Shown here: piece after piece, positions 1,898-36,490 of the stretch
How positions within the stretch are numbered: position 1 is the first letter of the stretch
Layout: the number at the start of each line of letters is the position of its first letter
DNA from: a virus
Taxonomy: Duplodnaviria > Caudoviricetes
DNA: 52,123 nt
Strand: one strand, 5' to 3'
Virus record (IMG/VR): IMGVR_UViG_3300042673_000631
Span: 1 to 52,123 of that record
Translations under genes and position numbers: made by a program
Notes under the pieces: model-generated
The model's input: only the letters and a program-made list of their open reading frames with translations
Database searches by the model: none
Told to the model about the DNA's origin: nothing

Positions 1898-2328
1898 CAA
1901 CAATTATTGAAAACTGGGAAAAGCGAGTCAAAGAAACATTTGGTGGGGATCTTCCTTCAGTTGTTGAGGTTGAACATTTTGAGAAGAATGCCGACTCAAG
2001 TGACTTGATGCGAATGATGGTCAAGACCGTTCATTATGGGGTTCGGGTTCTGTTTCCGATTTCTAAAATTGACCATGTGGTTGTTTCAGCATTTCAGCGT
2101 CAAACTGAGTTGGAGGGTTTGGTTATTCCAGCGGATCATGGTGGAATGTCGGATGTTCACTTTGGAGCCAACATGAAATTGATCTTGCCTAACCGAAGCA
2201 TTTTTGGTGTTACTGCCATCACTTTTGGATGCGACCATGAAATGGATCATCGGCAGAAAGGCAATTGCTACTACGAGTCGCAATGCTCTAAGTGCAGTTA
2301 TTCGTATGTGGTTGACTCTGGCGACTAA
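1894..2328 (+). CDS. Hypothetical protein with C-terminal Cys/His cluster
   Basis: GGAGG RBS; CDHE...CYYESQCSKC. Confidence 0.6.
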   Translation: MTTIIENWEKRVKETFGGDLPSVVEVEHFEKNADSSDLMRMMVKTVHYGVRVLFPISKIDHVVVSAFQRQTELEGLVIPADHGGMSDVHFGANMKLILPNRSIFGVTAITFGCDHEMDHRQKGNCYYESQCSKCSYSYVVDSGD

Positions 2329-2350
2329 AGCAAACTGAAGTAAAAGTCAA

Positions 2351-2380
2351 GTGGGGTGATGCTTCGGCTCACCCCATTTT
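2351..2380 (+). terminator. Probable intrinsic terminator of the early island
   Basis: GGGGTGA-TGC-TTCG-GC-TCACCCC stem-loop followed by ATTTT. Confidence 0.6.
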
Positions 2381-2394
2381 GCTATCCTCGCCAT

Positions 2395-3834
2395 GTGGCT
2401 GACATGCGTGAACTAGGAACATCAGGATTTCAACATTCTGGCGGTTCTGTAACAGACGAATTTTTAGCGAATCTTCAAGGTATTCGTGGTATTCGTACAT
2501 GGCGTGAAATGGCTGATAACGATCCCGTGGTCGGTGCGATGCTGTTTGCTGTTGAACGGCTGATCCTGAATCTGAAATGGAAAGTAGATCCCTTTGTTGA
2601 AGAGGGCAAGACCAAAGCATCCAAGAAAGATGAAAAGGTCGCCGAATTTGTTGAGCAATGCTTGTACGACATGGAAAACTCTTGGGATGGAACGGTCGCC
2701 GAGATCCTGTCGTTTCTGACTTACGGCTGGTCGTACTCCGAGATCGTCTACAAGAAGCGTGGCGGGATGGACACCAAAGACAAGTCCAAGCGATCCAAAT
2801 TTAATGACCAAAAAATTGGTTGGAGAAAGATTTCTAACCGAGCGCAAGAAACATTGTTCCAGTGGGACATTGATGAATCTGGCGATGTGAGAGCAATGCA
2901 ACAATTAGACCCGTCTGGCGGTCGTGGTCTGGTGTCAATTCCCATTGAGAAGGCTCTGCACTTCCGTACAACCTCCGCTAGAAACAATCCTGAAGGACGA
3001 AGCCTTTTACGCAATGCGTACCGCCCGTGGCGATTTAAACGCACCATTGAAGAAATTGAAGCGATCGGCATTGAACGAGATCTGGCTGGTCTGCCAGTCG
3101 CTTATGTCCCGCCGTCCATGCTTTCGTCCACCGCAACAACAGACGAAGTGTCTGCCCGCAATGCGATCCAAAACATGGTGCGTGGAATCAAACGAAACCA
3201 AAACGAAGGCATCCTTTTCCCGCTCGCTTTTGACGAGGGTGGGCGAGAGATGTACAAACTGACTCTTCTGTCCAGTGGTGGCAACCGCCAGTTCAACACT
3301 GATGCCATTGTTGCCCGCTATGACCAGCGAATCACAATGACAATTTTGGCTGACTTCATTTTGTTGGGTCACGAAAAAGTCGGTTCGTTCGCTTTGGGTT
3401 CGTCAAAGATTGACTTGTTTCTGACTGCGATCGCCCAGATGACCGCTCAGATTTCTGATGTGTTCAACAAGGATGCTGTTCCGAGATTGTTGAAGTTGAA
3501 CGGTATGGATCCCCAGCGCGCACCCGTGATGCGAGTGGAAGAGTTGCAGTCCACCGATCTAACTGTTCTTGGTGACTTCATCACCAAAATGGCTGGTGCT
3601 GGAGCGTTGCAAGTTGATTCTGGTCTGGATGAGTTTGTTCGTGATCTTGCTGGCTTGCCACCAAAGGTTGAAGAAGAGGGTGCTTTACAACAAGGTGCCC
3701 AGATGCAACCGAATGCGATGCCCCAACCTCCTGTAGCACCGCAGTCTGCTCCACCCGCTGAAGCGCAACCTGCTCAAGCCCCGCCCGCTCAAGCGTCTGG
3801 TAGTGGTTCGGTTGAAGACTACATCATTCAATAA
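2395..3834 (+). CDS. Portal protein (DUF935/Mu gp29-like)
   Basis: Size; motifs LTYGWSYSEIVYK, NNPEGRSLLRNAYRPW, GIERDLAGLP; first gene of head module; probable GTG start 6 nt after TATCCT. Confidence 0.85.
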   Translation: MADMRELGTSGFQHSGGSVTDEFLANLQGIRGIRTWREMADNDPVVGAMLFAVERLILNLKWKVDPFVEEGKTKASKKDEKVAEFVEQCLYDMENSWDGTVAEILSFLTYGWSYSEIVYKKRGGMDTKDKSKRSKFNDQKIGWRKISNRAQETLFQWDIDESGDVRAMQQLDPSGGRGLVSIPIEKALHFRTTSARNNPEGRSLLRNAYRPWRFKRTIEEIEAIGIERDLAGLPVAYVPPSMLSSTATTDEVSARNAIQNMVRGIKRNQNEGILFPLAFDEGGREMYKLTLLSSGGNRQFNTDAIVARYDQRITMTILADFILLGHEKVGSFALGSSKIDLFLTAIAQMTAQISDVFNKDAVPRLLKLNGMDPQRAPVMRVEELQSTDLTVLGDFITKMAGAGALQVDSGLDEFVRDLAGLPPKVEEEGALQQGAQMQPNAMPQPPVAPQSAPPAEAQPAQAPPAQASGSGSVEDYIIQ

Positions 3835-4702
3835 AGCCTCACCTTTAACGCCAAACGAGATCGGGATGGCTGGTGCTGTCTCTCAAATTTCGTCAAGTTT
3901 GTCTCGGAGTTTGTTGGGTGTTATTGGTGGTTCGTCGGATGGTGTAACTGCTTTGGGTCGGTTGAGTTCGGTTGATATTTTGGATCAACTTCAGGACTTA
4001 ACACCAGCAATTATTGGTCCGTTGATAAACGAACTTAACTTGTCTGCCATTGATGCGATTGCTTCTATCCCGCCACAGTTAAGCATCGGAGTCAGTTTCA
4101 ATACCACTGACCCTCGCGCGCTCGCGTGGGCGACCCAGCGGGCTGGCGAGTTCGTTGTCCAAATCAGTGACGAGGTACGGTCACAGATCAGGGATCTGAT
4201 CTCTCGTGGATACCGTGACCAAATGACTGTAGATGCCATTGCAAGAGAACTACGGAACATTGTCGGGTTGCATTCTCGTTGGGCTACCGCAGTGGAAAAC
4301 ATGTATGTACGAACACTTGACGGGCTTATCAATTCTGGTGTTGCATTAGGTATGGCGACTACGCAGGCAACCAGTCTTGCGGGGGCGTACCGTGACAAGT
4401 TGATCGCTTCACGGGCTAACACGATCGCCAGAACCGAAGTCATTGGGGCTAATAACGCTGGACGCTATTTGGGGTGGCAACAGTTCATGCAACAGTCTGG
4501 TTATCCGCCGAACTTGATGCAGAAAGAATGGGTTGTTGGTCCTGACGGTTGGCAGGGGATTAATGTATGCGATCTGTGTCTTGAGTTAGATGGCACGATT
4601 GTTGGTGTGAATGATGAGTTTCCTAGTGGTCGGTTGATGCCTCCGTTGCATCCGAATTGTCGTTGTACTGCTTTGCTGATTTTTCCTGAGGATGGTTTGT
4701 GA
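3803..4702 (+). CDS. MuF / SPP1 gp7-like head morphogenesis (minor capsid) protein
   Basis: RANTIARTE and C-terminal KEW...CDLC...PPLHPNCRC; follows portal. Confidence 0.85.
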   Translation: MVRLKTTSFNKASPLTPNEIGMAGAVSQISSSLSRSLLGVIGGSSDGVTALGRLSSVDILDQLQDLTPAIIGPLINELNLSAIDAIASIPPQLSIGVSFNTTDPRALAWATQRAGEFVVQISDEVRSQIRDLISRGYRDQMTVDAIARELRNIVGLHSRWATAVENMYVRTLDGLINSGVALGMATTQATSLAGAYRDKLIASRANTIARTEVIGANNAGRYLGWQQFMQQSGYPPNLMQKEWVVGPDGWQGINVCDLCLELDGTIVGVNDEFPSGRLMPPLHPNCRCTALLIFPEDGL

Positions 4703-6408
4703 TGCCGTACAAGATTGAGCAGAGGGCTGACAAGTTTGTTGTTGTTCGTGAAGACGGCGGGAGAGTTGTTGGTACGCATTCGTCTAGGGCTAAGGCGACG
4801 GCTCATGTGCGGGCTTTGTATGCAAATGTTAAGGATGCCATTGAGAAGGCAAAGTTTGCTTCTCGTAGCGAAGCAGGCAAGTACGCCGCTCACATTCGGT
4901 GGATGCGAGAGCGGGGTATGGAACCGTTAACGCCTGATGCTTGGCGTAGCCAGAACGCTCAACCAGTTCAACCGACAAGAAGTTCTTATGAAAGTTCGTT
5001 AGATGCGATCACAAGTTTTGCTAGTGATGAGTTTCAAAGCAGATTGCGTGATGCCGGTGCTTCTATAAGGGGTAGTAGGTATGACGGTGGCAGATTGGTT
5101 CCGTTAGGAGAATATTTAAATATTCAAAACGAAATGTCTGTGGTTAGAGTTCGTAACCCAAATAATCCTGTGAATACAATAATTATTGGTTCTCCTCCTC
5201 TGATGGCGGTTGAACGAGAAGTCAATGAACTGGGCGGGTTAGTGCATAATGCGATACTAGAAAAAATGAAACAAGACGGACATATTTTGCCAAACGGTGA
5301 ATTTAATACTGCCAAACACGAAGCGTTAATGCAAGTTCGTGACGAATCGCAGGCTGTTGTTGATGAGATTAGAGCCAAAGCCAAAGAATTAGGGCTACAA
5401 CAGTTCACTGGTTATGAAAACGGTGCCCAAACTGAAGAAATGAAAATTGGGTGGCGTGGAGATCCTAAAGATATAGATACTGCGGACCTCCCTCCTCGTC
5501 TCAAAAATTTGCACGAAAAATGGGACACACTGCACCAAGAATTTTACGAAATTCCGTGGAGTGAACGAGATGCGAATGTTTCAAAAAGAGAACAGTTAGA
5601 TGCCGCTAAAGACGAATACGAGAAAGCCGCGCTCGCCGATTTTGAAACTTGGTTTAACGCTAACCACAATCCGTCAGGATCTGGAAGTCACAAAGATCAG
5701 TTTTCAAAAATAAGTAATAATCACAACAACAATATGAGAGCGGTCTGGTCTTATCCAAATTATGTGGATCGGTATGCTGAAAGTTTTAGTAAAGTCATGG
5801 AAGATCTAAATATTTCTGCCAAGTCACAAATTGGTAAATCTGACCAAATTGATTTAAGTAGAAGTAGGTTGACCAAAGCAGAAAAAGAAAAGTTTGCTAG
5901 GGACATTCACACATTTTTTCCTGCTAAAGCAATCAAAATTTTTAGTGATAGATATGGCTTACTGAAAGTAACAAAATCCAAAGGTGGTGGGCATTGGAAT
6001 GTTAGTGATGTACAAATTTTGACATCTAATTCGGAAGGTACGAACATACATGAATTTATGCATGCTTTAACTTATGCGGATCGTCGGGCTAACTTTGTGG
6101 AACAAGCATTTCTTATGCGACGGCAAACAGTTGGTGGGCGTAATAATCAGCCTATTAAAGAACGCATTGTTAATGGTTGGGAAAAACCTAAACAAACTTA
6201 TGACGGAGGAAGAGGTAGACGGTTTGACTCTCTATATATTCGTGACGAGTTTGCGGATGAATATACGGGCAGGCATTATTCGTCTGGTCATACCGAAACT
6301 ATGACAACTGGTTTGGATCGCCTGTCTGAAGGTGGCACTCATATTGAAGATCAGGATCACATGAACTCTACTTTAGGTTTGCTTGTAGCGATTGGGTTGG
6401 GACAATGA
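4699..6408 (+). CDS. Tagged head-cargo protein 1: small N-domain, SRSEAG..RW tag, C-terminal zincin metallopeptidase
   Basis: IEKAKFASRSEAGKYAAHIRW at 4843-4902; HEFMH at 6049-6063 with downstream DEYTGRHY...TETMTTG. Confidence 0.7.
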   Translation: MMPYKIEQRADKFVVVREDGGRVVGTHSSRAKATAHVRALYANVKDAIEKAKFASRSEAGKYAAHIRWMRERGMEPLTPDAWRSQNAQPVQPTRSSYESSLDAITSFASDEFQSRLRDAGASIRGSRYDGGRLVPLGEYLNIQNEMSVVRVRNPNNPVNTIIIGSPPLMAVEREVNELGGLVHNAILEKMKQDGHILPNGEFNTAKHEALMQVRDESQAVVDEIRAKAKELGLQQFTGYENGAQTEEMKIGWRGDPKDIDTADLPPRLKNLHEKWDTLHQEFYEIPWSERDANVSKREQLDAAKDEYEKAALADFETWFNANHNPSGSGSHKDQFSKISNNHNNNMRAVWSYPNYVDRYAESFSKVMEDLNISAKSQIGKSDQIDLSRSRLTKAEKEKFARDIHTFFPAKAIKIFSDRYGLLKVTKSKGGGHWNVSDVQILTSNSEGTNIHEFMHALTYADRRANFVEQAFLMRRQTVGGRNNQPIKERIVNGWEKPKQTYDGGRGRRFDSLYIRDEFADEYTGRHYSSGHTETMTTGLDRLSEGGTHIEDQDHMNSTLGLLVAIGLGQ

Positions 6409-9221
6409 TTAGGTTCGGGTATGTCCAGAATGGTGTTCAGCGGTTTGCTGAGTGGACTGAAGAGTCTGGGCTTGTATGCGAAGACGATTTGCTTGATGCC
6501 GTCAATCTTTTGATTGGGGCTAAGGCTCCTGTTAAGTGTTCTTGGGTCGGGTATTTGATGGAAGCGTCTGTTGATACTCCTGTGCAGGCGTGGGGGACTA
6601 TCAATAAGGCATTGAAGTGGTGTAATGGTGTTGAGTTGGTTCGTTGTACGCCACCGTTGATTGAGTATGACGAGTTTTCGGAACCTGAAGAGGATCTGCT
6701 TGAGAAAGCAACTTTTAGTTCACGATCTGAAGCAGGCAGATATGCCGCCCAACAGCGTTGGAAGAACCATGCGAAACAAGAAACGCTGTTAACTCCAACC
6801 GATGATGTTTCTTTGGCACAAAAAACTGGTCAACCAATTACATGGTTGCTTCCTGCTACACGGGATATGCGGTTAAAAGGTTTGTTAAGTAGTTTGGCTC
6901 CTCATTTTATTGCTACTGGTGTGTCAGTCCAAGATTTTGACTCTGTGTTGGGTGATCCAGCAATTAAACCGTTGATTAAATATTTGGAAGATAAAGGTAT
7001 TGTTGATATACCAGATTTTTATAGTTCTGAGGGTGCGACTAATGCTGAGTTGGTTGCTCACGGGTTAATTGTTTCGGCGATGCAAGACCTTGCTTTGAAG
7101 ATGAGGTCTAGCAGTTTGGATGTTGACCGAAGCAAATCGTTCAATCAGGCAATTCAGATCGCTACTGATGGTTTTCCAACAGTCAACATGGGTATTACCG
7201 CTTTTGAGATGATGATGGATGAGGGCGGTCGTTACAAGACACAGTTTGAGGCTGGTGATTCTGGTGGATATTTTAGTCCAGATTTGCGGGCGGCTTTTGA
7301 ATCTAGCGTGTTGGGTTTACATCCTGACATGGATGCGACTAAGCGTCCCGTGTATGGCACTATGCAGACCTCAACAAGTTTAAAAACAAGTGAAGATGCT
7401 CAAATGTACGGTGGCATTGTTTTGCAGTTAAAGAATAATGTTCGGGATCGGACAACTGTTGCTTACAACGATTCGTTGGGTATGGCGACAAGAACTGCTC
7501 CAGCAAACAGTGTTAAAGATGATTCTGGTGGCATGTTTCGTACTGGCATGATTACGGAACCGTTTTTTTATGTTGAGGCTCAGATTCATGGTGGTGTCAA
7601 CATGGATGATGTTGATGCTGTTTGGATTCACAATTTTACGGGTGTAGATGCTGAGGCTCCTCGTCGTGTAAGGGAAGCGTTGGATGCGAATGGGTACACG
7701 GATGTTCCTGTGTTGCGTGTGGGCGTGGACGAACCTGTGGAGAAAGCGAAGTTCAGTTCACGAAGTGAGGCAGGTAGGTATGCGGCTCACATTAGGTGGA
7801 TGAATGAGCGTGGTATGACTCCGATGACCGCCGACCAGTGGAATGCACAGAACTCTGGTGGTTCGGAGCGCATGCGAAAGATTAAAAGCATGCAAGCGGA
7901 TGTTTCTAAGCGACTTAAAAACTTGAATGATGTTTTGGTTAAGTCTGGTTTGGCATCTGAGGGAATGTGGAACCAAGGAAGATTAGATAGTAATGGTGAT
8001 TTAAAGTATGTTGTTGTTGATCCTAAAGATTGGGATAAGACCAGCGTTCCTGAGGTAAGTAAAAGTCCGATGGCGGCATGGCTTGTTGAAGTAGACATAA
8101 AAAACCCAGAGAGTCCTTTTGCAACATATCAAGTTCCTAATGCTGAGGTCATGGCTTTGATGGAGGATGTTAAAACTTTAGGTTCGTTAATTGAAGAAGA
8201 AGTTCAAGAGCGGATCAACGCACAAAATATTCGTTTGGCAACTGGAGCAGAAGCATCCCGTGACTTTACTTTAAAAATTGTTAACGCCCAGAGAGTGATA
8301 ACGCATTACGAAACAATCACTTCCAGATTTTTGAATGATTTCATCACTTTTAAAGCAGATCCGAATGACCCAACACCAAAATTTCAACAATATGTTAAGT
8401 CAGGTCAACCTAAAATGATTGGGAGCCTTGTTGATTATGCCCCAAGTTTGGGAGAATTTATTGAAAGTAATAACAGTGCTGACGAAAAAGTTTTGCTTTC
8501 TGCTTTAATAGAAAAAACGCGATCTTCTGTTCTTGAATTAAACCAATTAGGATTTGAGCAGAACACTTCGGCAAAATATCGGCGTGAAGTTTTGGCTGAA
8601 ATTCGTTCTTTCGGTGCTGACGAAGGTACTCCTTATGAAATTGTTACTGGTTTCAATTTCCCGAATGGGGCACCTGTAGAAGTCCGTATTGCTGATGCGA
8701 TGCAAAATTTACCAACGGCATGGATTGACAATTTAAAAACTTACACGCAAACAAAAACTACGCATAGAGTGTTAAGAGCAAAAACTGTTAACGAAATGCA
8801 ATCAGGGTACATTGAAGCGAATCATATAATTCAAACTTCGGCAAATGCTCAGACTGCTTTTGTTATCCACGAATTGGTTCATGCTGTTGAAGCGTCAAGC
8901 CCAGTCATGCGAGCAATGGTTCATTCTTTTGGTGTCAATAGAAGAGTCGGTAATTTTAGACCTTCAGAAGAAAAGTTTGGTAGCACTTTTGCTCAAAGGT
9001 TACAAACTGGGATTTGGGAAGAATCTGGGCGATCTGGTTTCGTTGAAGATAGTTATTTTGATAAGTATTCTGGGCGTGTGTACGGCGGGTTCGCGTATTC
9101 TGCTCACGAACAGTTGACTACGGGGACAGATTATTCGTTGTTTGTCAATACGATTCGTCCGCATGACCGTATTGACTCGGATCAGTTGACTTTTACATTA
9201 GGAATGTGGGCTTCAGCATGA
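6405..9221 (+). CDS. Tagged head-cargo polyprotein 2: partner domain, tag, DUF3626-like domain, tag, zincin metallopeptidase
   Basis: Tags at 6702-6761 and 7740-7799; YKTQFE/RPVYG/RTT..DS/YVEAQIHGGV motifs; HELVH 8868-8882. Confidence 0.7.
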   Translation: MIRFGYVQNGVQRFAEWTEESGLVCEDDLLDAVNLLIGAKAPVKCSWVGYLMEASVDTPVQAWGTINKALKWCNGVELVRCTPPLIEYDEFSEPEEDLLEKATFSSRSEAGRYAAQQRWKNHAKQETLLTPTDDVSLAQKTGQPITWLLPATRDMRLKGLLSSLAPHFIATGVSVQDFDSVLGDPAIKPLIKYLEDKGIVDIPDFYSSEGATNAELVAHGLIVSAMQDLALKMRSSSLDVDRSKSFNQAIQIATDGFPTVNMGITAFEMMMDEGGRYKTQFEAGDSGGYFSPDLRAAFESSVLGLHPDMDATKRPVYGTMQTSTSLKTSEDAQMYGGIVLQLKNNVRDRTTVAYNDSLGMATRTAPANSVKDDSGGMFRTGMITEPFFYVEAQIHGGVNMDDVDAVWIHNFTGVDAEAPRRVREALDANGYTDVPVLRVGVDEPVEKAKFSSRSEAGRYAAHIRWMNERGMTPMTADQWNAQNSGGSERMRKIKSMQADVSKRLKNLNDVLVKSGLASEGMWNQGRLDSNGDLKYVVVDPKDWDKTSVPEVSKSPMAAWLVEVDIKNPESPFATYQVPNAEVMALMEDVKTLGSLIEEEVQERINAQNIRLATGAEASRDFTLKIVNAQRVITHYETITSRFLNDFITFKADPNDPTPKFQQYVKSGQPKMIGSLVDYAPSLGEFIESNNSADEKVLLSALIEKTRSSVLELNQLGFEQNTSAKYRREVLAEIRSFGADEGTPYEIVTGFNFPNGAPVEVRIADAMQNLPTAWIDNLKTYTQTKTTHRVLRAKTVNEMQSGYIEANHIIQTSANAQTAFVIHELVHAVEASSPVMRAMVHSFGVNRRVGNFRPSEEKFGSTFAQRLQTGIWEESGRSGFVEDSYFDKYSGRVYGGFAYSAHEQLTTGTDYSLFVNTIRPHDRIDSDQLTFTLGMWASA

Positions 9222-10192
9222 AATTAGATTGGTTGACCGTTGACGGTGACAGTATTTCGTGGGATAACGGGGTGGTTGATGCCCCGCAAGAGTTTTTGGA
9301 CAATGTGGACTTTCTGGTTGATGCGAAGGTTCGTGTTCGGTCGCCTCGGTTTTATTTTGCTGAGGAGGTTGCTGGTATGGACACGATGTTGGGGGCTTTG
9401 TTGACGATTGAGTTTTTGTTGGATGTTTTGGGTGTTGGTTTGGTTGAGGCTCCGATGCCGTTTGGGGTGTCGGATGTTTTTGTGACTGATAATCACGATG
9501 TGTTTGATGGTTCGGGTGAGTTTGAGAAGGCTATGTCTCGGAGTGAAGCGGGCAGGTATGCGGCGGAACAGCGTTGGAAGAACCATGCGAAGAAGGTTGA
9601 TCCTGTTCGGGTGCTTGATCCGCAGTATCAGAAAGTTGCTGATCGGATTAACGCTGGTACAAAATCAGTAACTGATGCTGGTTTCCAAATTGAAATAATC
9701 AATTCTCCTGAAGATCGGCAACGCATATTGGAGATGCATACAAAATTTAAAGATTTTGTTGTTGAACAAAGGAATTTGTGGCGAGATACAAAAGGAAAAG
9801 AAGGTAAATATTTTTCTGATAGAACAATTTCTGGTCTTCAGTTAATGACAACTTCTATAAAAAGGGGAGCAACACGAGGGACAACAATTGTTGTTCACGA
9901 TGGATCATTAGTTGCTGGTGCCGCTCTTGCTCATATTCAGACAAACAGTATGGCTGATGGTAAACCTATGTCAATTTGGCTTATGGGGTCGGCTCATATA
10001 GTTGAAGGTGCTGGTTCTGCTATGTATGGCGCGCTTTTGAAATGGGGTCAATCTCAAGGTGTTACATCTATTGAATTAGATCCGTTACCTGATGCTAAAA
10101 CTTTTTGGCAGACAAAAATGAGAATGATTTGGACTGGTGAAGAAATGGTTTATTCTGATAGCAAAATTGGAATGATTGGGGCGTTGAAATGA
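9218..10192 (+). CDS. Tagged head-cargo protein 3: partner domain, tag, GNAT-like acetyltransferase
   Basis: FEKAMSRSEAGRYAAEQRWKNH at 9524-9586; GAGSAMYGALLKWG...AKTFW GNAT motif A/B-like; ATGA overlap start 9218. Confidence 0.65.
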   Translation: MKLDWLTVDGDSISWDNGVVDAPQEFLDNVDFLVDAKVRVRSPRFYFAEEVAGMDTMLGALLTIEFLLDVLGVGLVEAPMPFGVSDVFVTDNHDVFDGSGEFEKAMSRSEAGRYAAEQRWKNHAKKVDPVRVLDPQYQKVADRINAGTKSVTDAGFQIEIINSPEDRQRILEMHTKFKDFVVEQRNLWRDTKGKEGKYFSDRTISGLQLMTTSIKRGATRGTTIVVHDGSLVAGAALAHIQTNSMADGKPMSIWLMGSAHIVEGAGSAMYGALLKWGQSQGVTSIELDPLPDAKTFWQTKMRMIWTGEEMVYSDSKIGMIGALK

Positions 10193-11268
10193 TCGGGTCG
10201 TTGGATGATATGGATGATGCGATGCCTGATCTATTGGATTGGCTTCGTTCTAATGTTGAGTTTGAGAAAGCAAAGTTCAGTTCTCGTAGTGAGGCTGGGA
10301 AGTATGCGGCTCATATTAGGTGGATGAACCAGAGGGGTATGACTCCGTTGTCTGCTGAGGCTTGGACGGCTAGTCAGAGTGCTGATGCGACACCTGTTGT
10401 TACGGCTCCGACTGTACCGTCACGGTTTACTGCTACTGGTATGTGGTGGGATGCACAACCGCCCGCTCTTGCTTCTATGAAAGATGCGATCACATGGTTG
10501 CAGGATAAATGGGGTGGCACAACAAAAGATCAACGGCGTAGATTCAGAGTAAAACTGAATGCTATGGGAAGTAACCCCAAAACGGATCATTTGGCTCAAG
10601 CGTATGCCATTGCAATGGATAACTTGTTTAAATTTGCACCTATCGTGGCGGAAACTATTGAAGAAGTAGTTTGGGATGAAAATCAAATACGGAATTCGTG
10701 GGGTCAGGCTAGTCGTGATGGTCACAGTCTAAATTTCATTGCAAGCACTTTTGTACAAACTTTGATACAGCCAGATGGAACAGTTATCCCTTCGGAGCAA
10801 TATGCGTTGTTTGCAAAAGAACAAGCATTTTCAACGGGGTTCAAATCTTCAAGGTCGCTGAGTAGCACTTTTTATCACGAGTTTGGGCACCACATTGGGT
10901 TTGCCGCTGGTAATAAAGCGTTGTACGGCGATGTTAAAGAAGTTAGACCATCCTTGTATGCGGATTCAGATGATCGTAAAAAGTACAATCGTGAACTTGC
11001 CAAATTGATTAGCCCGATTCTTAAAGAGCATTACGGAGATGAAAGTCGTGCAAGAATTGAACTTGATGATAAAGCGCAATATAAAATACGGGGAAAAATA
11101 GAAGAAGACATATCCAAATATGCTTTGACTAACTACGACGAATTGGTTGCGGAATCAGCGGCACAGTATTTTGCCGCCAAATTTGAACCTGACCAACCGC
11201 CAGCGTCACCGTTAGCAATCAAAATTGTTGAGACATTATTGAATTACATAGAAGGAGAGAACAAATGA
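10189..11268 (+). CDS. Tagged head-cargo protein 4: tag, zincin metallopeptidase
   Basis: FEKAKFSSRSEAGKYAAHIRW at 10264-10323; HEFGH 10876-10890 and ISKYALTNYDELVAE third-ligand motif. Confidence 0.7.
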   Translation: MIGSLDDMDDAMPDLLDWLRSNVEFEKAKFSSRSEAGKYAAHIRWMNQRGMTPLSAEAWTASQSADATPVVTAPTVPSRFTATGMWWDAQPPALASMKDAITWLQDKWGGTTKDQRRRFRVKLNAMGSNPKTDHLAQAYAIAMDNLFKFAPIVAETIEEVVWDENQIRNSWGQASRDGHSLNFIASTFVQTLIQPDGTVIPSEQYALFAKEQAFSTGFKSSRSLSSTFYHEFGHHIGFAAGNKALYGDVKEVRPSLYADSDDRKKYNRELAKLISPILKEHYGDESRARIELDDKAQYKIRGKIEEDISKYALTNYDELVAESAAQYFAAKFEPDQPPASPLAIKIVETLLNYIEGENK

Positions 11269-11501
11269 CTGAGGGTTTAACGATCTGTTGGGCTTGTAAG
11301 CACTTGCGAGCAGATTCAGCCGTTGTTGACGGTTGGATGGTTTCCACATGCGACGCTTTCCCTGACGGTATTCCGATCAAGATCTTTATTGATGGGTTTG
11401 ACCATCGGAAAGAATTTGGTGGCGATAACGGGGTACGCTTTGAACCGATAACGGTTGATATGGGCGTTGAGGCTCTAAAAATAGTTGAGGAGTTGTCGTG
11501 A
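11265..11501 (+). CDS. Small Cys/His protein (CxxCxH...CxAFPxGIP...H), candidate partner of upstream peptidase
   Basis: CWACKH...CDAFPDGIP...FDHRKEFGGDNGVRFEP; translationally coupled. Confidence 0.7.
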   Translation: MTEGLTICWACKHLRADSAVVDGWMVSTCDAFPDGIPIKIFIDGFDHRKEFGGDNGVRFEPITVDMGVEALKIVEELS

Positions 11502-11680
11502 TTTTGATTGCAATGGTTGATAATGCGAAGGTGTTTGACATTGAAGACGATGATCCGATGTTCGGCAAGCGTGTTGTTCTGGAGCGTGGCGGTGTTCAGA
11601 GTGCCCCGATCTTGTTGGAGAATGTGGTTACGAAAATGTCTATGAGCAAGTGGGAATGGATCAACCCCCCTACTAAATAA
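11498..11680 (+). CDS. Small hypothetical protein
   Basis: GAGGAG RBS, GTGA overlap. Confidence 0.6.
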   Translation: MILIAMVDNAKVFDIEDDDPMFGKRVVLERGGVQSAPILLENVVTKMSMSKWEWINPPTK

Positions 11681-11710: not shown

Positions 11711-13720
11711 ATGCATACACACGAAATAGACCAGTGGATTAACGGCGATCTGGCGTGGGAAGATTTGTCTGTTGAAGCGCAACGAAGTGTTGATGCTGAT
11801 GCGATGAAGGCTGAACCTGTCGCCGAAATGGAACTGGTTCACAAGTCGGTTGCTGAGAAGCGATTCACTTTGGGTCCGTGGTATATCCCTAATCGGTTGG
11901 ATGCTCATAATGAGTGGACGGACGCTGACGAGTTGCAGGCTGGTTTGTGGGATTATGTTCGTAAGGGTGATCGTGGTATCCGTTTACAGCACAATCGTGA
12001 CATTGTGGCTGGTGAATGGGTTGAGGCTATGCAACTGCCTGTACCGATGCGAATGCAGAAAGCGGCTGACGGCGGGGATGTTGAATATCCTGAGGGGACA
12101 GTGTTTTTGGGTGTTGTTTGGAAGCAGTGGGCGTGGGATCTGGTGAAGAACGGCAAAATTAAAGGTTTTTCTATTGGTGGTTCGTCGGCTCGTCTGCCAA
12201 TTGAGCCTGTTTCTAAGGCTGTCGGGTTCAAACCGATGTTTATTCCTGCGTTGATTCGGGTTTCAGGTAAGTCTTTTGCTGTCCGTCCAGATGGTGGAGG
12301 GGTTCGGGTTTCGTCGGGTTCTGATGCTGTTGTGTTTGATCCGTATCGGGCTGATGTGGTTGCTAAGTCTGTTTCTGGAGCGCAGTTTGCTGATGCGAAG
12401 ACGATGGTGGCGATTTCTAAAGCGATCTTGACTGGCAATGTTGATGCTGGAATGTGGGCTGATACTGGGGTTTCGTGGGTTTTTGTTAAGGCTAAGTTCA
12501 GTTCTCGTTCTGAGGCGGCTCGTTACGCCGCTCATATTCGTTGGGCTACTGAACGAGGTGAAACCCCGATGGGTGCGGGCGAGTTTTCGGAACAAATTAA
12601 GTCGTCTGCGGATTATGCGATGATGAATTTGAAGAAAAATCGTGATGCTTTGGCTTCCAAGATGGAGTTTCCGCATAACGATCTTCCTGTTGGTCCGTTG
12701 GGTTTGCCAACTTCTCCTGCTGGTAAGTCTTTGTTTAACACTTCTCCGTCGCTTGGCGGGCATGTTGATTTTGACGCTATGGGCAAGTACATGATGGATC
12801 GTTTAGATCAACCGAACATGGGTTTTGGTAAGGCGGGGTTGCCTACAGAAGCACCGTATGATGTTCTTCGTCGTTTTATGACTCCTGAACGGCGGGCTTT
12901 GCACGATGCGATCGTTGACGCTCATTTGGCTGGCAAAACGGCTAGAGATGATACCCCCGAATACACTTGGCTTGGTGGTGGTGGTGCTTCTGGTAAAACC
13001 AGCATTTTGGAATCTGGTGCCGCTAGTGTTCCGACCCGTGTTTTGAAGAATGGTTCGGCTGTACCAAGTGGTGATATGCACTCTGTTGAGATCAATGCTG
13101 ACGAAATCAAAGATTTGTTACCAGAGTTTTTGGCGTTGACAAAGGGTGGGGAAAAAAGGGTTTATGTCACTGCTGACGGTAGAGAAAAGCCTTATGAATT
13201 GGGTCGTTCAACTGAGCGGGCACGATTTGTTGCGGCTGGTTTTACTCACGAAGAGTCGTCTATCCTTGCGAAGCGTATTAACTCCGAGGCTATGTACAGA
13301 GGTTTGGACATTGTGATGGATGGTACTGCTGACGGCAAACCGGGGGCACAAGCGAAGAAGGTTGCTGTGGCTCAAGCAAACGGCTATAAAACTCGTTTGA
13401 TTATGGTGACTATCCCTACCGAAGTGGCTATTGTTCGTTCTAATGAGCGAGGTATTACTTCGGGGCGTAAGGTTCCTGAGTTCGCTTTGCGTGACGCTCA
13501 TGTTGGGGCTTCGGCAAGATTTTTGGAAACGGCACCGCTGTATGACTCTTTTGAGGCTTATGATAACTCAGGGCGACCGCCACAAAAATTTGTAAGTAAG
13601 AGTACCAAGGGTGGTCGGGTTACTATTCAAAATAAAGCCCTGTATGATGCTTTCTTAGCGAAGGCTGGCGAAAGTTTGGGCGAGTCAACAGCAAGGGATG
13701 AACCGTGGACATTAGCGTAA
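11711..13720 (+). CDS. XkdF-like (S78-type) prohead protease fused via tag to zeta-toxin-like P-loop kinase
   Basis: N-term GPWYIPNRLDAHNE...LQHN...GT..W..VKNGKIKGFSIGG; tag 12485-12544; GGGGASGKT 12974-13000, INADEIK, HEESS, VMDGT, GRKVP, YDNSG. Confidence 0.8.
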   Translation: MHTHEIDQWINGDLAWEDLSVEAQRSVDADAMKAEPVAEMELVHKSVAEKRFTLGPWYIPNRLDAHNEWTDADELQAGLWDYVRKGDRGIRLQHNRDIVAGEWVEAMQLPVPMRMQKAADGGDVEYPEGTVFLGVVWKQWAWDLVKNGKIKGFSIGGSSARLPIEPVSKAVGFKPMFIPALIRVSGKSFAVRPDGGGVRVSSGSDAVVFDPYRADVVAKSVSGAQFADAKTMVAISKAILTGNVDAGMWADTGVSWVFVKAKFSSRSEAARYAAHIRWATERGETPMGAGEFSEQIKSSADYAMMNLKKNRDALASKMEFPHNDLPVGPLGLPTSPAGKSLFNTSPSLGGHVDFDAMGKYMMDRLDQPNMGFGKAGLPTEAPYDVLRRFMTPERRALHDAIVDAHLAGKTARDDTPEYTWLGGGGASGKTSILESGAASVPTRVLKNGSAVPSGDMHSVEINADEIKDLLPEFLALTKGGEKRVYVTADGREKPYELGRSTERARFVAAGFTHEESSILAKRINSEAMYRGLDIVMDGTADGKPGAQAKKVAVAQANGYKTRLIMVTIPTEVAIVRSNERGITSGRKVPEFALRDAHVGASARFLETAPLYDSFEAYDNSGRPPQKFVSKSTKGGRVTIQNKALYDAFLAKAGESLGESTARDEPWTLA

Positions 13721-13986
13721 ACCGTATTAGCCGTTTGATGCAGGCTATTGTTTTGGGCGAGGACGCTGAGGCGTTATGCGAATCGCCTGAGGAGTTGCAG
13801 ATTCTTCCGCAGTTGCGTGAGGAGTGCCAGTTTGAAGATGGAATGATTTTGGATTTCCAGAATGATTCTGTGGATGCGAATGCTTGGGATTGTGCTGGGT
13901 TTGATCGTGATGCTTGGGAAGCGGCGGGGATGCCTGACGATGCTTGGGCGTTTGTGAAGCCGTATGTATCAGAGGCTTGGGCTTGA
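13705..13986 (+). CDS. Highly acidic small protein, candidate antitoxin of the zeta-like domain
   Basis: Overlaps end of kinase gene; very D/E-rich. Confidence 0.55.
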   Translation: MDISVNRISRLMQAIVLGEDAEALCESPEELQILPQLREECQFEDGMILDFQNDSVDANAWDCAGFDRDAWEAAGMPDDAWAFVKPYVSEAWA

Positions 13987-14029: not shown

Positions 14030-14413
14030 ATGAAACCAATTGCTGTATACGGAACCCTGATAAAAGGATTCCACAACTCACGGCTGTGGGATGGGCTTGC
14101 TACCTACGAGGAGTGCATCATCCACGATTTCCGTCTTGTCACTCACGGGTGGTACCCGTATGCGATACCAGACGAGGGATCAATAACAGTCGGTCAAATT
14201 ATTACGCCGACAAGTGAAGTTAACGCTTCAACGATCTTGTCTCGGCTTGATTATTTAGAAGGTGTTCCCGATCATTACAGTCGTGAATCTGCAACTGTTG
14301 AACTTGAGAATGGTGCGATTGTTACTGCATGGATTTATGTTCCTGTGAGTGATGAATCAAGTTTGGATCCTGTGCCAGAAAACGACTGGCGACTTTACGC
14401 AAGTCTTGTTTAG
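14030..14413 (+). CDS. Gamma-glutamylcyclotransferase (AIG2/GGCT-like)
   Basis: IAVYGTLIKGFHN, YPYA, LDYLEG..HYSR, AWIYV; GGAGGG RBS. Confidence 0.85.
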   Translation: MKPIAVYGTLIKGFHNSRLWDGLATYEECIIHDFRLVTHGWYPYAIPDEGSITVGQIITPTSEVNASTILSRLDYLEGVPDHYSRESATVELENGAIVTAWIYVPVSDESSLDPVPENDWRLYASLV

Positions 14414-14450: not shown

Positions 14451-15149
14451 ATGGCTTCGCGGAAAATGGTAAACATGAACATTGAAGAGACTTCTGGTGT
14501 TGACCATCCCGCGCACATGGACGAAGGATGGATCCTTATGAAGAACTCTGGTTTAAACACCGAAGATTTTGAAACGATTGAAAAAATGGTCGCTTTGGAA
14601 TCAGAACTTGCTGACGCTCAGGCTCGCCTTGCCTCTTTAGAAACTGAAGAGACAACCGAAGAGACAACCGAAGACATGGACTACATGGACGACGATGCGA
14701 TGATGAAGTCGGCTCCGCCTGCTGTTCGTGAAGCATTGTTGAAGGCTCGTAACGAGGCTTTTGTTGCTCAGGAAGAACTACGCAAAGAGCGTGAAGTCCG
14801 TCTTGACGCTCACGCAATTGCTAAGAGCATGGACGATTATGGCAATCTTGCTATTGACCACGAAGAATTTGGTCCTGCCCTTCGCCGTTTGGAAGAACTT
14901 GACGCAACAGTCGTTGAGATCATCGCTAAGGCTTTGCAGTCCGCTAACGCTCAGGCTGAATCAGCCAACATTTTTGCCGAAATCGGCTCTTCATACATGC
15001 CAAATACTGCTGGCAGTTTCCAGAAGATTGAATCGCTCGCTAAGTCCGCTGTGACCAAGGGCGAATATAAGACCGTTGAGCAAGCAATCGCTGGCTTGAT
15101 TGAAACCAACCCATCGTTGTACGCAGAGTACATCGCTGAAACCCGCTGA
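14451..15149 (+). CDS. Capsid scaffolding protein
   Basis: IEETSGVDHPA N-terminus, coiled-coil, acidic, C-terminal NPSLYAEY; upstream of capsid genes. Confidence 0.7.
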   Translation: MASRKMVNMNIEETSGVDHPAHMDEGWILMKNSGLNTEDFETIEKMVALESELADAQARLASLETEETTEETTEDMDYMDDDAMMKSAPPAVREALLKARNEAFVAQEELRKEREVRLDAHAIAKSMDDYGNLAIDHEEFGPALRRLEELDATVVEIIAKALQSANAQAESANIFAEIGSSYMPNTAGSFQKIESLAKSAVTKGEYKTVEQAIAGLIETNPSLYAEYIAETR

Positions 15150-15167: not shown

Positions 15168-15563
15168 ATGGCATACGAAATTTCCAATTACAGCGTCAAA
15201 ATCACCCTTGTCGCCGCCGCTGACCTTAGTGCGAAGCAGTATTACTTCGTCAAGATCAACACTTCGGGTCAAGCCGCGCTTTGTGCGGCGGCTACTGACA
15301 AGCCGATTGGCGTTCTTCAGAACAGCCCAACCGCTGGTCAAGAAGCCCAAGTTCTAGTTATTGGTGGAACTAAGGTCGTTTGTTCCGCAAGCCTAGACGA
15401 AGGTGTTGCTATCGGCACGACTTCGGCTGGTAAGGCTGGAGCAAAGGTTGTCGGAACTGACACCACTAACTACATCGTCGGTCAAATCATCCTTGCGGGT
15501 GGAGCCGACTTGGATATTGCAACCGCTGTTATTAACTGTGCATCGCCTGCCCGCGCCGCCTGA
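15168..15563 (+). CDS. Capsid decoration/cement protein (DUF2190-like)
   Basis: AAADLS...IGVLQN.P.AG...GKA pattern; between scaffold and MCP. Confidence 0.7.
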   Translation: MAYEISNYSVKITLVAAADLSAKQYYFVKINTSGQAALCAAATDKPIGVLQNSPTAGQEAQVLVIGGTKVVCSASLDEGVAIGTTSAGKAGAKVVGTDTTNYIVGQIILAGGADLDIATAVINCASPARAA

Positions 15564-15580: not shown

Positions 15581-16531
15581 ATGCCCCAGCCCACACAAAA
15601 TCAGGTACATGTTGATGCGATTCTGACGAACATCAGTGTCGCTTACATGCAAAAAGCCGAAAACTTCATTGCAAACAAGATCTTCCCGATCGTTCCTGTT
15701 GAGAAGCAGTCGGACAAGTTCTTCAAGTACACCAAGAACGACTGGTTCCGTGACGAAGCACAGCGACGCGCTGATGCGACGGAATCTGCTGGTGGCGGTT
15801 ACAACTTGTCAACCGATTCGTACAACGCTGAAGTGTGGGCTTTCCACAAGGATGTTGGCGATCAGACTCGTGCAAATGCTGATGCTCCTATCAATGTGGA
15901 TCGTGAAGCGGTTGAGTTCATTACGAGCCGTTTGTTGCTCAAGATGGAAACTGAATTCGTTTCAAGTTATTTCACGAGTGGCATTTGGGCTACTGACAAC
16001 ACTCCGTCAAACTTGTGGTCGGATTACACCAACAGTGACCCGTTGAACGATGTTGAAGATGCGAAGCGAGCAATCCTTTCCACTACTGGTTTTGAACCGA
16101 ACACGCTTGTGCTTGGTTACGATGTTTTCAAGGAATTGAAGAATCACCCAGATCTCGTTGACCGTATCAAGTACACCTCGTCTTCGGTTATCACGACTGA
16201 CATGATCGCTCGTATGTTTGATGTTGATCGTGTTGTGGTTTCAAAGGCTGTCAAGGCAACCAACAATGAAGGTGCCACTGGTGCTTATGACTTCACTGCT
16301 GGTAAGAATGCGCTCTTGTGCTATTCGGCTCCGTCACCGGGTCTTCTCCAGCCGTCTGCTGGTTACATCATGTCTTGGACTGGTGTTTCTGGTGGTCTTG
16401 GTCAGACGATCGGTTCAAGCCGTTTCCGTATGGAATCAGTGAAGGCTGACCGTATTGAAGCAGAAATGGCTTTTGACATGAAGGTCGTTGCCGCTGACCT
16501 CGGTTACTTCTTCGCCAGCGTGGTTTCGTGA
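15581..16531 (+). CDS. Major capsid protein (HK97 fold)
   Basis: HVDAILTNISVAY...FIANKIFPIVPV...PNTLVLG...GYFFASVV; AAGGA RBS. Confidence 0.85.
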   Translation: MPQPTQNQVHVDAILTNISVAYMQKAENFIANKIFPIVPVEKQSDKFFKYTKNDWFRDEAQRRADATESAGGGYNLSTDSYNAEVWAFHKDVGDQTRANADAPINVDREAVEFITSRLLLKMETEFVSSYFTSGIWATDNTPSNLWSDYTNSDPLNDVEDAKRAILSTTGFEPNTLVLGYDVFKELKNHPDLVDRIKYTSSSVITTDMIARMFDVDRVVVSKAVKATNNEGATGAYDFTAGKNALLCYSAPSPGLLQPSAGYIMSWTGVSGGLGQTIGSSRFRMESVKADRIEAEMAFDMKVVAADLGYFFASVVS

Positions 16532-34868: not shown

Positions 34869-36488
34869 GTGGATTTTGACCTGACTGAGTTAGAGAAAAA
34901 GATGTCTCCTTCGGAGGCTGGTCGTTACGCCGCTGAGATGCGATGGCGTACTCATTCTGGTGCGCCTCGGATGGCTGGGGATAACACGATTTCGTTGCCT
35001 GATCGGTTGAATCGGGCTACTGACAACATGTTGGCTAAGGGTGGCAGTGTTTCTCATTTGGGTGTTGATGAGAGTGACGCTGTTTTGCGTGGTGCGATGA
35101 TGATGGTGGAGCGCACTTTTAGTGAGGCTCGTATGAATCAGCGGGATTACGAGTTGAATGTGCATGCTCAGAAGTCGTGGAATGAGGCTCGTAAGGATCC
35201 TTCGGCGATGCTTCATGTGGTGCGTGTTGGTCGGAATATTGCGGCGGTTGCGGTTACGGTTCGTCCGAATGATGCGACGGTGGAGATTCGGCATTTGAGT
35301 TCTACTGGGGTGTTGAAGGGTGCTGGTTCGGCTTTGTTGGGGTCAATCATTAAGAAGGGTGTGAAGGGTGGGCGTACTACTTTTCGGGTTACGCCGTCTG
35401 AGGAATCTAAGTCTTTTTGGGATGAGTACGGTTTTAGTGGTGCTGTTTATGACCAGTTGGGTAATCCTGATGGGTCGCAGGATTTGGTTGTGAAGCCTGA
35501 GTGGTTGCGTGTTCTTAAGGCTATGTCAAGGTCTGAGGCGGGGAAGGTAGCGGCTCAGGCACGATGGAAGAACCATGTAAAAACAACTGATGCGACACCT
35601 GTTGCTCCGCCTGTTCAGCCGTCTACCCCTAAAAAAATTGCTACTAAGCAGGGCATCGGTCGTGCGTTGAATGATGCGGGGATTAAGAAAACTGGGTATA
35701 TTTATTCGTCCAGAATTCGTGGTTACGCTACACCGACTTCGGGTTGGGAATCTGTGGAAACTGAGAACGGTTTTAAAGTTACTTTCAAGATGGTTAGTGG
35801 TGGAGTGCGAGCGCATTATTCCCAATCTCAAGAAGTGAAAGATCGTATATCGGCTGTTAATCAAGAATATATTGATGGTCAACTGAAAAGAATGCATGAT
35901 GCTCTTAAGGCAAAAGGGTATGACACTTCGTTTGATGGTGAAACAATTTTCGTTAATAACACGAGTCCAGTTTTGGGAGTTTCTTCAAGATCTTCTAGTC
36001 CCGCCAAAATGAGGCAAATAGAGTCAGTGACAACACGGTTTACCGAAATGTCCAACAGTGTAGCCAAGGCTTTTTCTGAAGAATATATGAAAAAGGCGGG
36101 TCTAAAATTAACCGAACAAGGTTACGGTCAAAAAGAGGCTACAGAGGCTGAGTTAAAACTTGGAAAAGAAAAGAAAGACTTCCTCATAAAAATTTTGGAT
36201 GAGCAAGGCAAGAAGGCTCAAGGTGCGATAGAAAATCTTGCTCAAGGATTTATGCCTTTATCGCAAAAAGATATCTTGCAAGGTGTCCGCTCATTTTTAA
36301 AAAGCAAAGAAAAAGAAACTGTTCGGGAAATGCAAAGCAAAGGTTTAGGGTCTTCTAAAAAAGAAGATACTACCGTTGGTTCTATGGTTTATTCAACTAC
36401 GCGAGCGGTTTTAGAAAATGCACGACTGTTTATTGATTTAGCAATAGAACGAGCCACGCCTCTAGTAGAAAAACAACCGAAAGGGTAG
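34869..36488 (+). CDS. Tagged cargo polyprotein 6: tag, GNAT, tag, unknown domains
   Basis: LEKKMSPSEAGRYAAEMRW 34893-34946; GAGSALLGSII...SKSFWDEYGF; VLKAMSRSEAGKVAAQARWKNH 35514-35576. Confidence 0.65.
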   Translation: MDFDLTELEKKMSPSEAGRYAAEMRWRTHSGAPRMAGDNTISLPDRLNRATDNMLAKGGSVSHLGVDESDAVLRGAMMMVERTFSEARMNQRDYELNVHAQKSWNEARKDPSAMLHVVRVGRNIAAVAVTVRPNDATVEIRHLSSTGVLKGAGSALLGSIIKKGVKGGRTTFRVTPSEESKSFWDEYGFSGAVYDQLGNPDGSQDLVVKPEWLRVLKAMSRSEAGKVAAQARWKNHVKTTDATPVAPPVQPSTPKKIATKQGIGRALNDAGIKKTGYIYSSRIRGYATPTSGWESVETENGFKVTFKMVSGGVRAHYSQSQEVKDRISAVNQEYIDGQLKRMHDALKAKGYDTSFDGETIFVNNTSPVLGVSSRSSSPAKMRQIESVTTRFTEMSNSVAKAFSEEYMKKAGLKLTEQGYGQKEATEAELKLGKEKKDFLIKILDEQGKKAQGAIENLAQGFMPLSQKDILQGVRSFLKSKEKETVREMQSKGLGSSKKEDTTVGSMVYSTTRAVLENARLFIDLAIERATPLVEKQPKG

Positions 36489-36490
36489 TT

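Follow-up and report, generated by a model that had tools for sequence, protein, structure and literature searches.

A tagged zincin-like peptidase and its small partner domain form a coupled two-gene module in the head region of an uncultured phage

What is the role of a small domain that follows a peptidase gene and at the same time opens the protein encoded by the next gene? This question is raised by the IMG/VR virus record IMGVR_UViG_3300042673_000631, which was analysed over its whole length of 52,123 bases (the window). The record has a CheckV completeness of 98% and is a near-complete uncultured phage, head module included. On the + strand, which carries all genes described here, the order is portal, MuF, g4699, g6405, g9206, g10189, g11265, a short open reading frame (ORF) and a fusion of an XkdF-type protease with a Zeta-toxin-type domain. 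Every effector domain in the MuF-to-protease array is preceded by a short conserved motif, here called the tag. We find that a tagged putative zincin and a small partner domain, the N-domain, form a conserved, translationally coupled two-gene module, [tag-zincin][partner]. In the lineage of the window the partner is fused via the tag to the next tagged effector, which results in a daisy-chain gene layout.

The first module begins with g4699 (4699..6408), whose product consists of a 48 amino acid (aa) leader, a tag at aa 49-73 (tag copy 1, 4843..4917, found by regular expression and sequence logo), a helical region and the C-terminal putative zincin A (aa 382-567, 5842..6399) with HEFMH at aa 451. 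The zincin hidden Markov model (HMM) matches zincin A with an E-value of 2.1e-79. This description is based on the translation, the tag positions and five full-length, close homologues from large protein collections, all of which share the C-terminus (...LVAIGLGQ or ...GFK). The stop codon of g4699 overlaps with the start of g6405 in an ATGA at 6405 (...GGACAATGATTAGG). The g6405 product of 938 aa starts with N-domain 1 (6405..6701), the partner of zincin A, whose fold covers aa 1-82 and is followed by an acidic tail up to aa 99. Tag copy 2 (6702..6776) links N-domain 1 to the next effector, a DUF3626 domain (Pfam: PF12294, E 2.8e-9) with a matched core at 7215..7481, which probably extends over about aa 130-440. 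Tag copy 3 (7740..7814) precedes the second zincin module, which ends in zincin B (aa 756-938, 8670..9218, zincin HMM E 4.7e-52) with HELVH at aa 822, a paralogue of zincin A. A second ATGA overlap at 9218 (...TCAGCATGAAATTA) leads from the g6405 stop into N-domain 2 (9218..9517), the partner of zincin B, which is again the N-terminus of its protein. Tag copy 4 (9518..9592) links it to a GNAT-type acetyltransferase effector (9593..10192), and the complete product has 324 aa. Both N-domains precede tags of a short 'QRWKNHAK' subtype; the other four tags of the head array, copies 1 and 3 included, belong to a long 'HIRWM' subtype.

A model that had seen the letters and their translations (the sequence-only reading) had described both ATGA overlaps with related zincin genes, and they are found at 6405 and 9218 as it said; the sequence strings it cited are all present in the translations. 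It had also placed the start of the third gene at 9218. The ORF lister begins this gene at a GTG at 9206, hence our label g9206. As the homologue P0001 begins at the Met equivalent to 9218, the true start is most likely ATG 9218.

The same reading had called the two pre-tag N-domains clearly related, and this holds up in a comparison from which the tags had been cut. Aligned with hhalign, the profiles of the g9206 subtype (four sequences) and the g6405 subtype (14 sequences) match with a probability of 95.9% and an E-value of 5.5e-9 over 79 columns. Moreover, an HMM built only from the g6405 subtype retrieves the g9206 N-domain at E 2.2e-4 (Z = 4558). A Smith-Waterman alignment of the domains without the tag (g6405 aa 1-98 against g9206 aa 1-104) scores 50, compared to 25.1 +/- 4.4 for shuffled sequences, and 1 of 2000 shuffles attains the observed score. 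With the tag included, BLASTP aligns the two N-termini at E 6e-17 with 42% identity across 105 columns. Composition-adjusted BLASTP with the tag excluded does not report a colinear N-domain alignment, which would agree with a similarity arising by chance or from the shared tag. Such an origin is refuted because of the tag-free profile-profile E-value, and the shuffles as well as a family of 22 distinct members with a confident common fold also speak against it; we assign it practically no probability. These comparisons indicate that the N-domains of g6405 and g9206 are real homologues.

Paralogy of the two zincin modules extends over their full length, with g4699 aa 31-200 matching g6405 aa 428-614 at E 7e-20 and a second segment, g4699 aa 450-540, matching g6405 aa 821-909 at E 6e-4. 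H451, E452, H455 and E533 are invariant among 13 zincin sequences. In the AlphaFold2 (AF2) model of g4699, with a predicted local distance difference test (pLDDT) score of 77, the strands 423-426, 431-434 and 439-442 lie directly before the HExxH helix 446-460. The invariant E533 lies at the start of a later helix (534-543) and is a candidate for the third ligand in this model. Three strands, an HExxH helix and a later Glu form the zincin-like peptidase core of polyvalent proteins as described in the text of Iyer et al. 2017 (PMC5512222), and the C-terminal domain of g4699 shows this core, with its sheet of three strands before the HExxH helix. An Atlas structure search pointed to the C-terminal parts of MuF-annotated proteins with a template modelling (TM) score of 0.78 by query, and to ATLF-annotated clusters with TM scores of 0.57-0.58, all under the bar; both are treated as leads only. 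The assignment as a putative zincin is based on the motifs, the predicted secondary structure and these Atlas leads. Two homologues, P0010 and P0012, have an additional tagged domain (about 180 aa) between the MPYKIEQ leader and the zincin module.

Is the pairing of zincin and N-domain a peculiarity of the window? Relatives were retrieved from IMG/VR by alignment-based scans. A tag-based scan returned 69 loci (L012-L080), most of which match only the tag part of the query, and therefore this sample is not selected for zincins. Three close relatives of the window (L009-L011) were retrieved with the zincin gene family A2. In the 69 loci, L009-L011 and the window we called 4558 ORFs of at least 50 aa. 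Two HMMs, one for the N-domain and one for the zincin catalytic domain, were run against these ORFs with a single iteration each.

The search gave 26 distinct zincin domains, which group into 16 clusters at 50% identity. All but one (25) lie at the end of their ORF, as is expected for a toxin domain at the C-terminus. Directly after 23 of these 25 ORF-ending zincins (14 of 15 clusters) follows an ORF that is initiated by an N-domain, its listed start between -64 and +30 nucleotides (nt) from the zincin stop. Conversely, 21 of the 22 distinct N-domains are found directly behind a zincin. A recoding event, by which zincin and N-domain would be joined through a frameshift or read-through, was rejected because the offsets vary between loci (including -4, -1 and 0) and the frame relation is not constant. 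The N-domain is fused via the tag to a further effector in 14 of the 22 distinct cases. The other eight are stand-alone ORFs of 98-111 aa, which end in a Pro- and acid-rich tail at the exact point where the fused forms enter the tag. Thus a small downstream ORF of under 150 aa is seen in eight stand-alone cases among the relatives and is fused in the window. The N-domain match begins at residue 1-21 in the locus ORFs, the offsets being upstream GTG or TTG starts, and at residues 1-3 onward in all 16 database proteins examined (318-1127 aa); no N-domain was internal or joined to a zincin C-terminus among the locus ORFs and these 16 proteins. Behind the tag the database proteins carry a zincin, an HExGH peptidase, ART (Pfam: PF03496), GNAT or DUF3626. 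L009-L011 show zincin A, N-domain 1 and, further on, zincin B and N-domain 2 as in the window, and the effectors between the two pairs differ between the window and these relatives. In the most divergent zincin cluster, an acidic-tailed ORF of 100 aa begins 1 nt after the stop (L019:11813-12115, L030:3953-4255). It was rejected as a remote N-domain (hhalign probability 0.9%) and may be an analogous partner.

The coupling to the peptidase that had been proposed for N-domain homologues is thus present in other phages (21 of 22 N-domains, 14 of 15 zincin clusters). That each peptidase is followed by a partner stands for the ORF-ending zincins and fails for zincins inside polyproteins (L079 and P0038, see below). 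The census also bears on a simpler explanation, in which the N-domain merely serves the effector behind it as a leader or pro-peptide, and follows the zincin by incidental synteny. Other genes of the array do have pre-tag leaders of 25-50 aa, and the closest relatives are syntenic by descent. A mere leader is nevertheless highly improbable in our view, given stand-alone N-domain ORFs that have no downstream effector, a zincin that precedes 21 of 22 distinct N-domains while the effector behind them varies, and homologues of the GNAT effector that bear other leaders.

These homologues illustrate how the tag is used. P0001 opens with the N-domain, as in the window; in P0002 and P0003 its place is taken by the short acidic leader known from g10189, and in P0005 by the MPYKIEQ leader known from g4699. 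What precedes the tag can therefore be exchanged, with the GNAT-type effector found behind three different leaders, and, judging by these exchanges, by the joining of g9206 and g10189 in L009 and L010 and by the proteases fused ahead of a tag, the tag acts as a module boundary. Its boundary properties suggest that the tag may be cleaved and may serve in capsid loading. Leaders and effectors are also shuffled at the tag at L011:5403-7948.

The tag logo, derived from 184 distinct copies, is conserved from position -6 to +18, about 25 aa, with the consensus K-A-S-F-G-G-[DS]-R-S-[EA]-A-G-R-Y-A-A-x-x-R-W-K-G-H-x-K starting at K-A (position -6). In the window, the motif (F)EKA(K)FSSRSEAGRYAAxxRW occurs in six copies in the head array and in three more at 34.8-36.7 kb. 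The 69 loci, L009-L011 and the window contain 166 distinct tag ORFs, 125 with one copy, 32 with two and nine with three. XkdF-type protease matches were found in 18 of them, including the window's, with the first tag at about residue 205-350 and most commonly near 210; the MuF profile matched none of the 166. The usual locus order is portal, MuF, tag genes, protease (plus tags) and major capsid protein. In L045, three tag genes lie between MuF and protease and none has an HExxH motif; therefore the tag system is independent of this zincin. It was found only in uncultured viral contigs (the window and L012-L080).

If the tag is a cleavage site, the zincin itself could be the protease that cuts it, and the N-domain could dock the zincin at the neighbouring tag as a substrate-presenting or regulatory domain. 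Zincin-like peptidases have been proposed to process polyvalent proteins (Iyer et al. 2017, PMC5512222, in the part of that work considered here), and the fused N-domains lie immediately 5' of a tag. However, 8 of the 22 distinct N-domains stand alone with no tag behind them, the array of L045 is tagged without any HExxH, and the prohead protease, which is fused to tags in 18 of 166 tag ORFs, is the more general candidate. We therefore regard a tag-cutting zincin as improbable.

Zincin and N-domain have diversified together. Across 18 distinct pairs, their distance matrices correlate with a Spearman coefficient of 0.656, a value that none of 5000 permutations reached. The window pair B groups with the pairs of L015:946 and L031:6911 in both families and not with pair A of the same genome, and pairs A and B within one genome have just 21-27% identity. 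As pair B clusters outside its own genome and at this low identity, the sequences indicate that the duplication is old and that zincin and N-domain move together.

For the N-domain, AF2 with 20 sequences gives a confident model with a pLDDT of 88.6 and a predicted TM score of 0.79. Its topology is three strands, a helix, two strands, a helix and a strand, followed by a disordered acidic tail. For the complex we used g4699 aa 90-568 together with g6405 aa 1-100, and the prediction score was 0.63 (runs 0.31, 0.63 and 0.68), compared to 0.00 for the best of three controls. The predicted interaction of the cognate pair zincin A and N-domain 1, which the sequence-only reading had called for, was thus obtained. 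In the calibration of the tool, 58 of 80 solved complexes attained this mark, as did 2 of 110 mismatched pairs. The contact agreement among the runs is at least 54% and the pLDDT of the partner at least 74. On the zincin side the predicted contacts are 343-356, 428-432, 443-448, 517-522 and 544-550, an interface that flanks the HExxH helix 446-460 and adjoins the invariant D516, Y522 and D551. On the N-domain side they are 35-42, 46-51 and 68-80, which are variable positions; the near-invariant residues A54, A62 and T65 are outside the contact list. According to this model the partner most likely binds the zincin catalytic domain.

Several observations weigh against the partner being a dedicated inhibitor of a zincin. 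The runs of the complex prediction range from 0.31 to 0.68, and the calibration counts of the tool hold only roughly here because the alignments were made by us. The catalytic residues are absent from the list of confident contacts. The zincin family matches no Pfam (E <= 0.1-1), PHROG or PDB sequence profile; the zincin profile (A6) had no relevant match among PDB sequences, and a Foldseek search with the whole 569-aa g4699 model returned long-helix noise only. Foldseek of the N-domain model against the PDB gave no match at E <= 0.001 (best E 0.24, TM <= 0.31), and therefore no known inhibitor fold backs the role. Shared descent or adjacency alone could yield the co-diversification, which is supporting evidence and not proof. 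Between the window and L009-L011 the N-domain has 82-93% identity and the zincin A catalytic domain 66%. Fast-evolving immunity proteins are usually not better conserved than their effector, so this pattern runs in the opposite direction. In the exception cluster (two distinct zincins, L019/L020/L054 and L030/L059), the zincin is followed by the different, acidic ORF of 100 aa described above, which has no detectable homology to the N-domain. Furthermore, the internal zincin of L079 (aa 709-925 of 1738) runs directly into a tag, with the only N-domain of this locus two genes downstream, and the first zincin of P0038 is followed in frame by a tag without an adjacent N-domain. Such partner-less internal zincins count against an obligatory inhibitor because it would be expected beside every copy.

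The main rival to the inhibitor role is that the N-domain binds the zincin as a chaperone for folding or packaging, as an adaptor or as a stoichiometric subunit in trans, possibly co-packaged. It shares the coupling, the co-diversification and the predicted interface with the inhibitor role; the better conservation of the N-domain compared to the catalytic domain fits a structural role, and part of the confident contacts (343-356) fall in the helical region, beyond the catalytic core. An interface that flanks the HExxH helix and conserved motif residues is less in keeping with it, and the polyprotein zincins manage without an adjacent N-domain. The N-domain is also untagged, both as a stand-alone protein and after the predicted cleavage, so nothing marks it for packaging. 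We consider such a role possible, if on the unlikely side.

We favour the reading that N-domain and zincin are cognate binding partners, that the N-domain most likely serves as an inhibitor or as a cap akin to an immunity protein, and that it is freed by tag processing; taken jointly, this is reasonably probable. The sequence-only reading had proposed the module of tagged peptidase and partner, with the partner fused to the next unit. Its architecture stands, given the 14 of 15 clusters, the eight stand-alone forms, the co-diversification and the complex model; for the role of the partner, these data are compatible with an immunity protein or inhibitor and also with a chaperone or subunit. Removal of the partner at the K-A site, likewise proposed in that reading, is a putative step, for which we see a conserved tag that begins at K-A and acts as a module boundary. 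Binding, inhibition, tag cleavage and capsid packaging are all steps that we infer. In the proposed mechanism, the interval from MuF to protease would be an array of cargo or effector genes, each effector preceded by a tag. A zincin effector ends its polypeptide, and the coupled gene encodes the small alpha/beta N-domain of ~82 aa with its acidic tail, which would cap the zincin beside the active-site helix and thereby silence the peptidase in the producing cell. Both partners in the window would have lost their own stop codon and continue via the tag into the next effector, the first into DUF3626 and zincin B, the second into GNAT. Tag processing, probably by the XkdF-type prohead protease, would then regenerate the free partner.

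The layout allows a more far-reaching reading. N-domain 1 at the head of g6405 would clamp zincin A, and N-domain 2, which opens the GNAT protein, would clamp zincin B at the tail of g6405. The fusions would thereby form a non-covalent chain of three gene products in one complex of fixed stoichiometry, which would be co-loaded into the procapsid via the tags and cut at every tag by the prohead protease. The cuts would free the effectors, with each zincin still capped by its own inhibitor until the proteins unfold for ejection. The tag would then mark cargo for loading and cleavage in general, across a large clade of uncultured phages. In its entirety we hold this chain to be unlikely, and offer it as a speculation.

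Searches outside IMG/VR gave few relatives. Among 50,697 GenBank phage records, no match was found by megablast of 4699-11268, by tblastn of g4699 or by tblastn of g6405 aa 1-135 at E <= 0.1. In the contigs of GTDB species-representative bacterial and archaeal genomes, 164 pattern matches were obtained and none was confirmed; therefore there is no host or prophage information. Single-protein IMG/VR scans with g4699 and g9206 confirmed nothing. The N-domain family matches no Pfam or PHROG family, and an Atlas search with the N-domain gave no usable match. The search of representative proteins used a profile spanning all 318 positions of P0001 and not the N-domain alone, and therefore most of its 45 matches are to the tag or GNAT. 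Only eight of these were used, those whose best stretch covers the N-domain (profile start <= 31, reaching at least 121). For the GNAT-type effector a family profile was needed: searched singly, the window protein had no match, and the family profile matched the GNAT structure 4h89_A among PDB sequences (E 1.3e-6). GNAT (Pfam: PF00583) is matched by 6 of 12 members of this effector family.

The array starts behind the portal gene (2356-3834) and the gene of a MuF-like minor head protein (3803..4702; Pfam: PF04233, E 8.7e-13), which lies just 3' of the portal and just 5' of the cargo array. The leader of g4699 (4699-4842, MPYKIEQRADKFVVVRE...) matches phrog_3684 (E 2e-5) and is modelled as a three-stranded sheet and a helix. 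A leader of this type stays first after MuF even where the effector behind it differs. Behind the GNAT effector, g10189 (10189..11268) encodes a 25-aa acidic leader, a tag and a second type of HExxH protein (HEFGH); g9206 and g10189 are a single gene in L009 and L010. The following g11265 (11265..11501) encodes a 78-aa CxxC protein (phrog_33375) directly 3' of the HEFGH domain. By ORF coordinates the two genes (10189-11501) overlap by 4 nt, and they are a second peptidase-partner pair, unrelated to zincin and N-domain. The HEFGH domain is followed by the 78-aa CxxC protein in all four distinct loci that have this domain (the window, L009, L010 and L015/L016).

After a short ORF (11498-11680), the gene at 11711..13720 combines an XkdF-type prohead protease (Pfam: PF14550, E 4.6e-9), a tag (aa 259-283) and a Zeta-toxin-type kinase domain (Pfam: PF06414, E 4.2e-16). 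The protease of L009 and L010 has only 296 aa and lacks tag and toxin; elsewhere it comes with one to three tags and other domains. Further downstream are ORFs at 13705-13986 and 14030-14413, a probable scaffold gene (14451-15149), an ORF at 15168-15563 and a probable major capsid gene (15581-16531), where scaffold and capsid are named by position alone. Two further tag genes are located far from the head module, beside replication-type genes (34869-37555). In g34869, tag-like copies are located close to the N-terminus and at aa 220, and g36491 has a 50-aa leader ahead of a short-subtype tag. Two comparable tag genes are found in L010 upstream of the portal gene (1907-4251).

The first minutes of infection are decided by phage proteins that enter the cell along with the DNA. 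To our knowledge, little is known outside a few model phages about how injected proteins are chosen, kept harmless in the producer cell and loaded. The window defines three unannotated elements, a zincin effector family, its dedicated small partner and the 25-aa tag, none of which has a Pfam or PHROG family. Should the partner be an inhibitor, its fused form shows an immunity-type protein carried as a removable leader of the next effector, and successive cargo proteins would be linked in dosage and possibly in assembly. With module boundaries this sharp, expression, pull-down and cleavage tests can be designed directly.

Effector-immunity pairs, MuF toxins and polyvalent proteins are already known. 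In the literature examined, supplements aside, we did not meet the zincin family, the partner family, the fusion of a partner to the next effector or the tag. A text search with tag sequence strings found no paper, with the reservation that the tag or the N-domain may appear in supplements, e.g. where Iyer et al. 2017 present their novel domains. In the text of that work, polyvalent proteins of phages and conjugative elements have a zincin-like metallopeptidase as a hub domain (PMC5512222). Like the window genes, they are multi-domain, presumably packaged in the virion, and combine zincin, ART, GNAT and other domains; g6405 resembles them with its three modules, N-domain, DUF3626 and zincin together in one product, with portal, MuF and protease nearby. 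As described there, the supplementary list of 40 novel domains aside, polyvalent proteins have no partner gene behind the metallopeptidase and no repeated inter-domain tag. They are also one giant polypeptide in that description, whereas the window domains are spread over several overlapping genes.

The MuF polymorphic toxins of temperate phages have downstream immunity ORFs, according to the text of Jamet et al. 2017 (PMC5576092). In the features given there they share with the window genes the head-module context beside portal and MuF, and with the window zincins a C-terminal toxic-type domain, often a metallopeptidase. The small ORF immediately after this domain has its counterpart in the stand-alone N-domains of the relatives. 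Unlike in these toxins (PMC5576092), MuF is a separate gene in the window (3803-4702) and not the N-terminus of an effector. The window effectors carry a conserved tag, and the putative immunity protein forms one polypeptide with the effector that follows, both in contrast to the MuF toxins as presented there. Unlike for those toxins of temperate phages, there is no confirmed match in species-representative bacterial genomes and thus no sign of residence as a prophage.

A third comparison is offered by phage T4, the internal proteins of which have an N-terminal capsid-targeting sequence that is removed by the prohead protease. As proposed for the window cargo, a short sequence precedes the cargo, the head genes encode a protease and the pro-piece is cut at maturation. 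Unlike the T4 targeting sequence, the window tag, with its putative roles in cleavage and targeting, is about 25 aa long, may be internal and repeated, and the leaders ahead of it differ widely in size and include a folded domain and the protease itself.

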